A stretch of 64,000 bases of DNA from Armatimonadota bacterium (GCA_016235455.1 JACRKZ010000029.1:4183-68182); one strand, 5' to 3'. Shown: positions 38,529 through 42,289, numbered from the stretch's first letter. Notes: generated by a model from the letters alone, not told the origin. A program made the numbers and translations.

Positions 38529-39803
38529 CTATCGACCGCCCAGGCCGGTCAGCGAGGCGCCTTCGATGAACCACTTCTGGCCCACGAAGAACAGCAGGAT
38601 GATGGGCAGCACGACGAACGTCGACGCCGCCATCAGCAGCCCGGGCTCGCCGCCATGCTGCTGCTGGTAGAGCTGCAACGCGTAGGCCAACGGCATCTTT
38701 TCAGCCGACGACAGGTAGATCAACGGGCCCATGAAGTTGTTCCAACTGGCCAGGATGGTCATGATCGAGATAGCCGCCAGCGCCGGCTTGACCAGCGGCA
38801 GCATGACGCGCCAGTAGATCAGCAGCGGCCCGCAGCCATCGAGCCGCGCGGCGTCTTCCAACTCGCCGGGGATGGACAGGAAGAACTGGCGCAGCAAGAA
38901 GATGTTGAACGCCGAACCGAAGAAGGCCGGCACCCACAGCGGCGCCAATGTGTCGATCCAGCCCAGGTTCCGGAAGATCAGGAACTGCGGCATCATGGTC
39001 ACCGCGCCGGGCACCATCATCGTCGCCAGCAGCACGACAAACCAGGCGTCACGGCCCGGCCAGCGCAGTCGCGCGAACGAGAAGGCCACCAGCGACGACG
39101 ACAGCAACGTGCCGATCAGCCCCATGATCACCAGGAACAGCGTGTTGGCCAGGAAGGTCAGTCCGTAGTGCGTCTCCGCCGGCAGGTACCGGAGCGCGTC
39201 GGGGAAGTTCTGCCAGCGCGGCGCCACATGTCGCTTCTTGGTCAGGGCCGACCGGCCGACCACCTGCTCGGCGCCGCTGGCCAGGTCGCGCACCTTCACC
39301 TCACCGCTCTCGAGTTGCTCGACTTCGGCCACCTCGCGGCCGCTGTCCTTGAGCGTCGACAGGCCCGCGGGCTGACCGTCCTTGGTCTTGACCTCGCGCG
39401 ACAGCACCTGCTGCGTGGGTATCCACACCGGCGGAAAGACCGCCATCTCCTCGTCGGTCTTGAGCGCGGTGGAGATGAGCCAGGCGAACGGAATGAGGAA
39501 CACAAACGAGCCGGTCAGCAGCGTCAAATGCGTCGCGCAGCGACGCACGGCCTTCCGCGCCTGATCGCGGTTGCGGCTCTCGCGGCGCAGCACAACCGCG
39601 CTCAGCACAATGGCCACGCCGCCCGCGGCCAGTGTCAGCAGCGGCTGACCGAGACGCAGCGAGCCGATCACCAGCGCCAGCAACGCCGCCGGCAAGACGG
39701 CCAGTCCGCGCCGCGTGGACCAGGCCATGGGCACGGCCGCACCGCAGTACAGCGCCGCCCACAGACCAACCAAGAGGGCCAGAAGCCAGAGGAAGGCGGT
39801 CAT
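38529..39803 (-). CDS. carbohydrate ABC transporter permease (MalG-type)
   Basis: EAA-loop region AARLDGCGPLLIYWRVMLP. ATGA overlap with the upstream gene's stop at 39800-39803. Confidence 0.8.
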   Translation of the reverse strand: MTAFLWLLALLVGLWAALYCGAAVPMAWSTRRGLAVLPAALLALVIGSLRLGQPLLTLAAGGVAIVLSAVVLRRESRNRDQARKAVRRCATHLTLLTGSFVFLIPFAWLISTALKTDEEMAVFPPVWIPTQQVLSREVKTKDGQPAGLSTLKDSGREVAEVEQLESGEVKVRDLASGAEQVVGRSALTKKRHVAPRWQNFPDALRYLPAETHYGLTFLANTLFLVIMGLIGTLLSSSLVAFSFARLRWPGRDAWFVVLLATMMVPGAVTMMPQFLIFRNLGWIDTLAPLWVPAFFGSAFNIFLLRQFFLSIPGELEDAARLDGCGPLLIYWRVMLPLVKPALAAISIMTILASWNNFMGPLIYLSSAEKMPLAYALQLYQQQHGGEPGLLMAASTFVVLPIILLFFVGQKWFIEGASLTGLGGR

Positions 39804-42289
39804 CGCTTCTTCTCCACTTCGTAGTAGACCCAGTGTTTCTGGCCCCACCACTGCAACAGCGTCAGCACCAGGATGATCACGAAGATCACCCAGGCCACGG
39901 CGCTGGCCTGGCCCATCTTGAAGTAGCGGAACGCGTTGTTGAACAGATAGAGCACCGGCACCAGCAGGCTGTCCAGCGGACCCGCGCTGCCGCTGCCACC
40001 GCCGAGTACGTAGACCCGGTCGAACTCCTGCAGCGCGCCGATGGTGCCCATCACCAGGTTGAAGAACACATAGGGCGAGATCATCGGCAGCGTGACATTG
40101 CGGAACTGCGCCCAGCCACGCGCGCCGTCGAGCTGCGCGGCCTCATAGAGCGTGGCCGGCACGCCCTGCAGGCCGGCCAACCAGAGGATCATGCCACCGC
40201 CCGCACCCCACAGCCCTTGCATGATCAGGCCCGGCTTGGCCCACGCGGCCACGCCGAACCAGCCTGGCGGCGCCACGCCGAACCAGTCGCTCAGGGTCAC
40301 CTTCCACAATGCGTTGAGCAGGCCCTTGTTGGGGTCGCCGGCCAGTACCCAGCCCCACAGCACCGCCGAGGCGATGGCCGGGACGATGGACGGCACGTAG
40401 AACGCCGTGCGGTAGAAGCCGATGCCTTTGACCTTGGTGTTGAGCAGCAGCGCGATGCTCAAGCTGGTGGCCATGCCCAGCGGGATGCCGATGATCGACA
40501 GGTAGGCCGCGTTATACAGCGCCTTGGTCAGCAGCTCGCGGTCGTCGCCAAACAGCGTGGCGAAGTTGGCCAGCCCCACAAAGCGCGGCGCGTGCAGCAC
40601 GTCGTAATCGCACAGGCTGAACAGCAGCGAGGCGATGATCGGCCCGGCCGTGAAGACGACGAAGCCAAACAGCCATGGCCCGGCCATCATGTAGCCGGCC
40701 AGCGCCTCGCGCCTGGCGTGGCGCGAGTTGCCCACGGTGGCGCGGCCGCGGCGGATGCCGATGACCAACCCGATGAGTACCAGCAACCCGACCACGACCG
40801 CCGGCCCGGCGAAGCTGAACACGGGCAGGCTCTCGCGGGCCAGGGCTTTGTCGAGCTCCCGCTGCACCAGCCTGGCCTCTTCGGCGAGTGTCTCCTGCGG
40901 CTGCCGCTCACCAGCACAGGCGCGCTCGAAACTGCGCACATGCGAGTCCCACAGCGCCTGCCCGACAAAGGTCACCGGGCGGTAGCGGCTGGACGGCAGC
41001 ATGTCGAGGAACGCCTTCTGGGCGGCAAAGAGCCGGCCCTTAGGCGGGAACTCGGCCAGCAGTGCCTCGTTGACCGACGGCCGCGCGGTGTAGGTGAAGA
41101 CGAACGGCCGGCCCTTGCTCTCGTTGTAGGCCTTCTGCGCGCGCGATGAGAGGAGCGCGCCGTCCTTGGAGACCCACCACTTGATGAACCGCCAGGCGGC
41201 CTCGGGATGGCGCGCGCCGGCGGGCACGGCCAGCGAGAAGCCGCCCGACCAGGTGATGTACGGCGGCTGGCCTCGGAAGCGGCCCTCACCGGTCAGCCGT
41301 TCGGCGGGCACCGGCGCGGGCGCCACGGCGAAGTCGAGGTCAGGTGCGAAGCGTGCAATGGAGTTGAGCACCCACGACCCGTTGATGACCATGCCGATCT
41401 TGCCGGTGAAGAAGGGGTCCTGCTCATCGGGCAGGAAGCCCGACTGGAAGATGTTGACCTTGTCGTAGCCGCCCAGCGCTTCGTAGATGTCCTTCATGAA
41501 GGTCAGCGCGCCGACGGTGTGCGGGTTGTCGAGCGTGCACTTCCGCCCGTCCTCGCTCATGAACTCGCCACCGTTCTGCCACGAGTAGAGGTAGAGCCAC
41601 GAGTTGCCGAAGTTGGGGATGAACCCGATGCGCTGGTAGGTGTTGTCGGTGCCGAGCTTGGTCAGGCGCTTGGCATAGTCGCGCAGCTCATCCCAGGTGC
41701 GCGGCGGCCGGTCCGGGTCGAGCCCGACCTCGCGGAACAGCGCGCGGTTGTAGAACAACATGCGGTCGTCGATACCGGTGGGCACGGCGTAGACCTTGCC
41801 CTGGTAGCAGGCCTCGCGCCAGGCGGCCGGGTAGAAGTCGGCTTCGGTGATGCCGTCGGGCTGGCCCTGTTCCTTGGCCAGGAAGTCGTCGAGCGGCCGG
41901 AAGGCGTCGCGGCTGGCCCAGTCACCGATGGTGAAGCGATCCTGGTTGATCACGTCCGGCGGCACGCCGCCGACAATGGAGGTCATCAGCTTCTGCGGGT
42001 TCATCGCGCCCGCGCCCATGGACATCACGGAGACCTGGATGTCAGGGTTGCTCCGCTCGAACTCGGCCAACTGCGCGTCGAGCCCAGCGGTCTCCTTGCC
42101 CGACTGCAGGCCCCAGACGACGAGCTTGGTGCGGGCCAGAGCAGGTGACAGCAGACACCCCAGGAGTGACAGAGAAAGCAGCAGACGCCTCACGTGATCG
42201 GGACTCCCTGGCACGGCGGGTGAGCTGCGGAGAGCATCACCGCTCGCGCCGAGCATGAGCATACCATGAACGTCGGATGGCTTGATCAT
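39800..42289 (-). CDS. fused ABC transporter substrate-binding protein + MalF-type permease (single 829-aa polypeptide)
   Basis: N-terminal signal/lipoprotein-like peptide, family-1 solute-binding domain (~470 aa), an extra linker TM (FAGPAVVVGLLVLIGLVIGI), then a complete CUT1 permease N-terminus (RREALAGYMMAGPWLFGFVVFTAGP...CDYD) and an EAA loop (AAQLDGARGWAQFRNVTLP). The exact start codon is uncertain. Confidence 0.75.
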   Translation of the reverse strand: MIKPSDVHGMLMLGASGDALRSSPAVPGSPDHVRRLLLSLSLLGCLLSPALARTKLVVWGLQSGKETAGLDAQLAEFERSNPDIQVSVMSMGAGAMNPQKLMTSIVGGVPPDVINQDRFTIGDWASRDAFRPLDDFLAKEQGQPDGITEADFYPAAWREACYQGKVYAVPTGIDDRMLFYNRALFREVGLDPDRPPRTWDELRDYAKRLTKLGTDNTYQRIGFIPNFGNSWLYLYSWQNGGEFMSEDGRKCTLDNPHTVGALTFMKDIYEALGGYDKVNIFQSGFLPDEQDPFFTGKIGMVINGSWVLNSIARFAPDLDFAVAPAPVPAERLTGEGRFRGQPPYITWSGGFSLAVPAGARHPEAAWRFIKWWVSKDGALLSSRAQKAYNESKGRPFVFTYTARPSVNEALLAEFPPKGRLFAAQKAFLDMLPSSRYRPVTFVGQALWDSHVRSFERACAGERQPQETLAEEARLVQRELDKALARESLPVFSFAGPAVVVGLLVLIGLVIGIRRGRATVGNSRHARREALAGYMMAGPWLFGFVVFTAGPIIASLLFSLCDYDVLHAPRFVGLANFATLFGDDRELLTKALYNAAYLSIIGIPLGMATSLSIALLLNTKVKGIGFYRTAFYVPSIVPAIASAVLWGWVLAGDPNKGLLNALWKVTLSDWFGVAPPGWFGVAAWAKPGLIMQGLWGAGGGMILWLAGLQGVPATLYEAAQLDGARGWAQFRNVTLPMISPYVFFNLVMGTIGALQEFDRVYVLGGGSGSAGPLDSLLVPVLYLFNNAFRYFKMGQASAVAWVIFVIILVLTLLQWWGQKHWVYYEVEKKR

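Follow-up and report, generated by a model that had tools for sequence, protein, structure and literature searches.

ATP-binding cassette (ABC) importers with fused substrate-binding domains were reportedly treated by van der Heide and Poolman in 2002, and the primary paper on the MalE-MalF fusion importer of Bdellovibrio bacteriovorus is said to be that of Licht and colleagues in 2019 (Res Microbiol 170:1-12, PMID 30193862). The subject here is a gene that joins a family-1 substrate-binding domain to a MalF-type permease of the CUT1 sugar importer family in a single chain, found in a 64,000-nucleotide (nt) stretch of DNA, hereafter the window, from an Armatimonadota bacterium (GCA_016235455.1 JACRKZ010000029.1:4183-68182). 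Coordinates count from the first letter of the window, and amino acid (aa) positions of the fusion protein follow the numbering of its maximal open reading frame (ORF) of 829 aa.

Importers with fused binding domains serve as models of binding-domain docking and of the effect of stoichiometry on transport, and nearly all of this work has been done on the homodimeric OpuA and GlnPQ. A passage in PMC8276074 mentions the fused binding domains of such OpuA/GlnPQ-type importers. OpuA (OTCN) and GlnPQ (PAO) resemble the window system in tethering a binding domain to the transmembrane domain (TMD) of a type I importer, with a resulting high local concentration and fixed stoichiometry, but they have homodimeric TMDs with two or four binding domains, whereas the window system would be heterodimeric with one; their binding proteins belong to other clusters, their substrates are glycine betaine or amino acids, and their fusion order and topology solution differ. 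The window locus is set apart from this type by a conserved, distinct second permease of the MalG type and by a binding domain matching SBP_bac_1, not OpuAC or SBP_bac_3.

Within CUT1, the MalE homologue of Bdellovibrio is fused to MalF, which fixes their ratio at 1:1, and its ATPase is further stimulated by added soluble MalE, according to a passage in PMC6906923; the same fusion is cited in part of PMC7756565 as evidence that MalE fused to MalF is transport-competent. Like the window system, this maltose/maltodextrin importer belongs to CUT1, carries a single N-terminal family-1 domain on its MalF-type subunit and has a separate MalG, but it comes from a different phylum. The window permease is a short six-helix SugA/UgpA type without the large P2 loop, and its MalG partner has an N-terminal three-helix extension and an insertion in loop P1. 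The MalE domain of the Bdellovibrio protein appears among the Protein Data Bank (PDB) matches as 6FFL, titled "maltose/maltodextrin transport permease homologue", but it ranks only 26th for the window binding domain, with E from 2e-10 to 4.5e-11 versus about 1e-37 for CpMnBP1, a match so much weaker that the window fusion is not considered orthologous to Bdellovibrio MalE-MalF. CpMnBP1, from Caldanaerobius polysaccharolyticus (4r9f, 4r9g), binds mannooligosaccharides and is a stand-alone protein, unlike the fused domain of the window.

The closest solved permease pairs are those of the mycobacterial trehalose importer LpqY-SugABC (7cad, 8ja7) and of Sphingomonas AlgQ-AlgM1M2SS, which share the six-helix CUT1 permease core and the EAA loops with the window system. 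Both differ from it in having separate binding proteins (the lipoprotein LpqY, or a soluble protein), no extra linker helix, and MalG-type subunits of ~275-305 aa that lack an N-terminal extension and a P1 insertion. The permease part of the fusion matched SugA (7cad/8ja7) with E 5e-22 and also matched AlgM1.

The fused gene and its junction

The window has a G+C content of ~68%, and long spurious ORFs are therefore common in it; the maximal ORF at 39800-42289 on the minus strand is real coding sequence, with a G+C content at third codon positions (GC3) of 0.91 from codon 33 on. A first, sequence-only reading of the window had described this ORF as a signal peptide, a family-1 binding domain, an additional helix and a CUT1 permease, and this description is borne out by Pfam, NCBIfam and hydropathy alike. 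Pfam placed SBP_bac_1 (PF01547) at aa 66-377 (E 4e-41), with SBP_bac_8 matched too, and BPD_transp_1 (PF00528) at aa 605-812 (E 2e-12; 47.5 bits versus a gathering cut-off of 26.4). NCBIfam gave sub-threshold matches to UgpB/MalE-type proteins in the first half and to UgpA/MalF-type permeases at aa 521-815, the latter aligned to positions 3-286 of the 295 in the UgpA profile. The EAA-x3-G-x9-I-x-LP coupling loop, which contacts the ATPase, is present as YEAAQLDGARGWAQFRNVTLPM (aa 715-736), and an alignment of 48 sequences shows no variation at E716, A717, A718, D721, G722, T733 and P735; in the homologue alignment, many aromatic positions of the binding domain are invariant as well. A family-1 substrate-binding protein with the sugar-binding-protein fold and two different permease subunits, of the MalF/UgpA and MalG/UgpE types, together point to CUT1.

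A hydropathy scan found a signal-like segment at aa 36-54, then a hydrophilic stretch of 439 aa, and then a strongly hydrophobic 19-mer at aa 494-512 (AGPAVVVGLLVLIGLVIGI; Kyte-Doolittle (KD) value 2.64), here called transmembrane helix 0 (TM0). The tether between the last helix of the binding domain and TM0, ESLPVFSF, is only about eight residues long, and TM0 is followed by a 21-residue loop (aa 513-533) with six K/R versus one D/E, after which the helices of the permease begin. AlphaFold2, run on the alignment of 48 sequences, modelled a single continuous helix at 494-519 and then a helix at 523-558, and its model of the binding domain was confident, with predicted local distance difference test (pLDDT) values mostly of 85-97.

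The design of this junction recurs in 199 full-length fusions pooled from all searches, which cover a range of 22-100% identity at the binding domain. In 185 of them, a single hydrophobic 19-mer (KD ≥1.6) separates the binding domain from permease helix TM1; the remaining 14 consist of borderline values, projection artefacts and one probable frameshift. From binding domain to TM0, the median distance is 9 aa, and the loop from TM0 to TM1 has a median length of 26 aa and a median net charge of +4. TM0 is hydrophobic in all aligned homologues, alignments are conserved straight across the junction, and unfused permease relatives (~310 aa) begin right after TM0, at query aa 513-526. The earlier suggestion that the extra helix is the topological adaptor between an exported binding domain and a cytoplasmic permease N-terminus thus agrees with one helix plus a positive loop in essentially all 199 fusions, and absence of the helix from homologues, which would have spoken against it, was not seen even at 22% identity in the binding domain.

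Distribution of the fusion

A trivial explanation would be two adjacent genes, for a binding protein and a permease, that appear as one through an indel from sequencing or assembly or through a recent frameshift, in which case the linker would be translated intergenic or out-of-frame sequence. Separate genes do occur among the relatives: at 54-57% identity there are unfused binding proteins of ~455 aa (P0127, P0143) that stop shortly before TM0, and unfused permeases of ~310 aa occur at 44-49% identity. Yet an identical 797-aa protein was found, with its frame uninterrupted, on an independently assembled contig (Logan, run SRR12113407); a word-indexed search of 5.8 billion proteins recovered upwards of 120 homologues of full length (~800 aa), which are 61-90% identical and all contain both Pfam domains; and the reading frame is uninterrupted in 76 of 80 genome loci. 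GC3 is 0.91 throughout, and the hydrophobic helix and positive loop are kept down to 22% identity. The uninterrupted frame in the second assembly and in the homologues argues against an indel at the junction, and together with the junction survey and GC3 these findings effectively refute an artefact, whose probability is next to nil; the sequence-only reading was right to take the gene as a genuine fusion and not a frameshifted pair.

The search for similar fusions in related genomes was likewise productive, as at least 255 genomes encode a relative in a scan of one genome per GTDB species. Locus-level counts given here refer to the best 80 of these 255 genomes, whose matches span approximately residues 40-828, save a few cut by contig ends; those with taxonomic labels are all Armatimonadota or Abditibacteriota, and the others are unclassified metagenome-assembled genomes. 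Named sources of homologues include Abditibacterium utsteinense, Armatimonadaceae, Capsulimonadales and Chthonomonadales, and at least two hosts are in culture, A. utsteinense and Chthonomonas calidirosea.

An exhaustive HMMER search, covering 1.84 billion representatives of clusters at 50% identity, extended the range further: about half of the best 150 are full-length fusions in a single stretch, with identities down to 30%, and these 150 also include binding proteins and permeases that are not fused. At 33% identity, one of the clusters holds a paralogous fusion found in Fimbriimonas and other Armatimonadota. A separate, large fused family, 30% identical to the window protein, occurs in Candidatus Omnitrophota, and its nearest unfused binding proteins are 44-47% identical. 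In a rough neighbour-joining tree of binding domains, fused and unfused forms are interleaved, so several fusion or fission events are likely. An unfused binding protein anchored at its C-terminus was considered as an evolutionary intermediate and set aside because of too few cases: P0208, and P0201, which stops at the end of the hydrophobic segment and is probably a truncated fusion. P0208 itself (460 aa, on a 3.9-kb ENA contig) is an unfused relative of the binding domain that ends a few residues past a C-terminal hydrophobic helix (…AKTLVGSIVLVILGIVGWREIGRAS), and could be either an anchored intermediate form or a frameshifted fusion.

Substrate-binding-protein/permease fusions had been called rare in CUT1, which is true of the published literature, where no description of CUT1 fusions in Armatimonadota or Omnitrophota was found, but not of sequence databases, given the 255 or more genomes and the separate Omnitrophota family. 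The Bdellovibrio MalE-MalF-like fusions are therefore not a one-off, as there are large families in the poorly studied Armatimonadota and Omnitrophota. The fusion is a widely distributed family of a kind already known and characterised, a solid new family and not a new principle. Its members are now annotated as "extracellular solute-binding protein" or "permease", and the annotation should read fused binding-protein/permease subunit.

One Omnitrophota locus (L081, 6001-9479; JBDRDF010000032.1) encodes a 756-aa fusion followed by a 396-aa MalG-type permease with a P1 insertion of ~150 aa, unlike that of the window and with sub-threshold CBM_11/CBM30 matches. Next come genes for a GH94 phosphorylase, a ROK protein and a CBM30 protein, and no ATPase is present at this locus.

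Partner permease, substrate and proposed mechanism

Directly downstream of the fusion lies a MalG/UgpE-type permease gene (BPD_transp_1, 53.4 bits in Pfam; UgpE/MalG in NCBIfam), the start codon of which overlaps the stop codon of the fusion as ATGA, a typical sign of translational coupling. A MalG-type partner stands directly downstream of the fusion in 61 of the 80 loci and is its sole conserved neighbour, and most loci without a visible partner end at a contig edge. The EAA loop of the partner (LEDAARLDGCG...MLP) is invariant among homologues, and its PDB matches include AlgM2 (E 5e-25), SugB (E 2e-17) and MalG. At 424 aa, the partner is long compared with the ~275-305 aa of its solved relatives, the excess comprising three helices at the N-terminus and, within periplasmic loop P1, a beta-rich segment of ~60 inserted residues. 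Both extras were modelled with pLDDT ~80-88 and are conserved in homologues of ~431 aa, with the N-terminal extension missing in Chthonomonadales. In E. coli, the P2 loop of MalF helps dock MalE, according to part of PMC6906923, and by analogy it may be speculated that the insertions of the window and Omnitrophota partners help dock the tethered binding domain.

In several Armatimonadota genomes, the fusion and the MalG-type gene are split by mobile or selfish genes, with both genes retained. The insertions lie at 10416-12049 in L066, 10632-11268 in L058, 4866-6267 in L029, and ~10450-11640 in L064 and L076; the intervening genes include a tyrosine integrase with a small helix-turn-helix protein, a toxin-antitoxin-like pair, and others.

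The best PDB sequence match of the binding domain is CpMnBP1 (4r9f, E 9e-38), which is also its best fold match in Foldseek, with a target-normalised TM-score (TMt) of 0.81 at 24% identity, too low for ligand specificity to be transferred. The next-closest binding proteins are GacH (acarbose/maltose), then cycloalternan- and sophorooligosaccharide-binding proteins, and every one of the top 50 Foldseek PDB matches is either a CUT1-type binding protein for sugars, oligosaccharides or glycerophosphodiesters or an MBP fusion construct. By sequence and fold, the substrate is probably a di- or oligosaccharide, with a beta-mannoside-like compound as a weak lead. A GH130 enzyme, sought because of the mannooligosaccharide match, was present only in one relative (L084) and weakly in another (L006), which is too sparse for a lead. 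The gene neighbourhood was also tried as a substrate clue. When all ORFs from the 80 loci were clustered, the fusion and its MalG partner were the only recurrent families; those next in frequency, among them a TauE-like membrane protein, various ABC ATPases, FtsY and photolyase, occur in 13 loci or fewer, and none of them is informative.

These features very probably describe a type I CUT1 importer with a tethered binding domain, composed of the fusion, its MalG-type partner and an ATPase from elsewhere. The fused chain is made up, in order, of a Sec signal peptide predicted to be cleaved, the CUT1 binding domain, the short tether, TM0, the positive loop and the six-helix MalF/SugA-type permease. 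TM0 would act as a stop-transfer anchor that leads the chain from the periplasm back into the cytoplasm, allowing the permease to keep its normal N-in topology. The fusion would pair with the translationally coupled MalG-type subunit, and two copies of a MalK/MsiK-type ATPase from elsewhere in the genome would complete the importer. Once exported by Sec and held by TM0 some eight residues from the membrane, the tethered domain would capture a carbohydrate, dock on the permease pair, trigger ATP hydrolysis and release the sugar into the channel. As the permease pair is heterodimeric, each complex would contain exactly one tethered binding domain. Beside the homodimeric OpuA and GlnPQ, the family would provide a heterodimeric sugar importer that occurs in nature and is widespread.

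CUT1 importers that share an ATPase encoded elsewhere, such as those served by MsiK or MsmX, are well known. Several observations weigh against the proposed importer. No ABC ATPase was detected in the window by tblastn with an E. coli MalK query (E ≤1e-3), in line with the earlier remark that none is encoded nearby, and just 3 of the 80 loci have a MalK-like gene (45-53% identity) at a distance of up to 8 kb; because no ATPase is local, we infer the composition of the complex, as we do the direction of import and the substrate class. No conserved catabolic partner was found among the 80 clustered loci, the neighbours of which are not conserved. The permease part of the AlphaFold2 model has low confidence (pLDDT 40-70), perhaps because the alignment is shallow or the partner subunit is missing, and cleavage of the signal peptide is a prediction from sequence.

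Two other arrangements bear on these points. If the N-terminal segment were uncleaved or lipid-modified, the binding domain would be held at both ends, a variant that draws on an LLGC within the hydrophobic region of the window protein and on lipobox-like motifs in 13 of 117 homologues, e.g., LASGC and AAFGC in Chthonomonadales. Most homologues, however, have ordinary AxA-type sites without a Cys, and the N-terminal region varies in length (7-103 aa) and sequence, as for a removed signal peptide, which makes double anchoring improbable. The window protein begins with MRRLLLSLSLLGCLLSPALA, followed by RTK, a standard Sec signal peptide layout with a putative signal-peptidase site after ALA, and a hydrophobic N-terminal segment precedes the conserved KLVVWGL motif in 111 of the 117 homologues. 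The tethered domain and permease might instead form a sensor or transceptor signalling the presence of sugar to a hybrid histidine kinase (GAF-GAF-PAS-PAS-HisKA-HATPase-REC; 35599-38445, minus strand), which lies on the same strand ~84 nt past the MalG-type gene and is also present in a 90%-identical relative. This kinase is absent from all 80 genome loci, and it separates the MalG-type gene from an MR_MLE gene of the enolase superfamily (34314-35549, minus strand). In the 77%-identical relative L084, a 75%-identical MR_MLE gene stands immediately after the MalG-type gene, so that the kinase looks like a lineage-specific local insertion. The EAA coupling loops of both permeases are, moreover, invariant, as in an ATPase-driven transporter, and a sensory role is accordingly very improbable compared with import by the tethered-domain transporter.

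The slow evolution of the fusion, on a par with that of the housekeeping SRP receptor FtsY, speaks for strong functional constraint: in the same genome pairs, mean identity is 67.5% for the fusion, 64.9% for the MalG partner and 67.3% for FtsY. In other sets of genome pairs, the fusion averages 68.7% and 74.8% versus 35% for the TauE-like protein and 55% for photolyase, respectively. Such tight conservation is unusual for a sugar importer. A broader but rather doubtful interpretation is that the fusion and the extended MalG form a phylum-wide core system of Armatimonadota, and not an optional nutrient transporter, with an unusual set of ~16 helices, in which the extras of the partner co-evolved to hold or gate the tethered domain and the conservation reflects an essential role. 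The helices would comprise TM0 plus six in the fusion and three plus six in the partner. As for the role, one example would be to recycle a sugar of the envelope or one that serves as a compatible solute, much as LpqY-SugABC recycles trehalose.

Start codon, upstream region and gene neighbourhood

The ORF outlined in the sequence-only reading exists, but the start given there lies ~32 codons upstream of the likely one. GC3 is 0.66 over the initial 32 codons (42194-42289) versus 0.91 downstream, NCBI and the Logan gene caller both begin the fusion at GTG 42193, a Shine-Dalgarno-like AGGGAG precedes this codon, and TCATGGTATGCTCA, which lies inside the supposed first codons, is conserved in the 90%-identical relative L083, where it is part of the upstream non-coding sequence. 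Judging from these sequence features, the true start is most likely GTG 42193, giving a protein of 797 aa, and 42194-42289 is probably an untranslated leader or promoter. Within it, TGGTATGCT at ~42255-42263 is conserved with L083 and may be a -10 region, possibly an extended -10 element. The coordinates of all features are collected in Table 1.

Table 1. Features of the fusion locus, given as window coordinates.
Feature	Position	Strand	Remarks
Fused binding-protein/permease coding sequence	39800..42193	-	797 aa + stop; maximal ORF to 42289, first 32 codons probably untranslated
Signal peptide MRRLLLSLSLLGCLLSPALA (predicted)	42134..42193	-	aa 33-52; putative signal peptidase I site between ALA and RT
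Extracytoplasmic family-1 (CUT1, oligosaccharide-type) substrate-binding domain	40835..42133	-	aa 53-485; Pfam, PDB, Foldseek, AlphaFold2
TM0, extra linker/anchor transmembrane helix	40754..40810	-	aa 494-512; hydropathy, AlphaFold2, homologues
Cytoplasmic K/R-rich loop TM0-TM1 (RRGRATVGNSRHARREALAGYMM...)	40673..40753	-	canonical cytoplasmic permease N-terminus
MalF/UgpA/SugA-type six-helix permease core	39803..40672	-	EAA motif YEAAQLDGARGWAQFRNVTLPM at aa 715-736; Pfam, NCBIfam, PDB
MalG/UgpE-type partner permease	38529..39803	-	424 aa; ATG overlaps fusion TGA (ATGA)
Intergenic region between fusion gene and divergent aldo/keto reductase gene	42194..42421	.	AGGGAG, TGGTATGCT, weak inverted repeat 42327-42390

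A divergent promoter region shared with the neighbouring gene and containing a palindrome at 42339-42376 had also been proposed, but these do not constitute a conserved feature. The repeat is imperfect, with 20-nt arms that are 70% complementary and 24 nt apart, and it is absent from L083, the upstream neighbour gene of which is a different one; being weak and missing in this closest relative, the palindrome was rejected as an operator. In the upstream region, a sigma-70 consensus scan found no promoter, no better-than-chance terminators were found, and no Rfam family was matched. The divergent aldo/keto reductase gene, which together with the histidine kinase gene flanks the transporter pair in the window, was not found beside this pair elsewhere.

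Farther from the transporter, two DUF6785/DUF6784 paralogues, at 43050-45194 (plus strand) and 19191-21158 (minus strand), are 39% identical, have 8-10 hydrophobic segments each, and each adjoin a glycoside hydrolase gene (GH32N-like at 45207-46472 and an alpha-L-fucosidase at 21195-22670, respectively). These proteins may represent an uncharacterised membrane family tied to sugar use. Near the transporter region, a Tn5/IS4-like DDE transposase ORF with weak Pfam matches (31659-33086, plus strand) adjoins a beta-lactamase-family gene at 33101-34615 on the minus strand.

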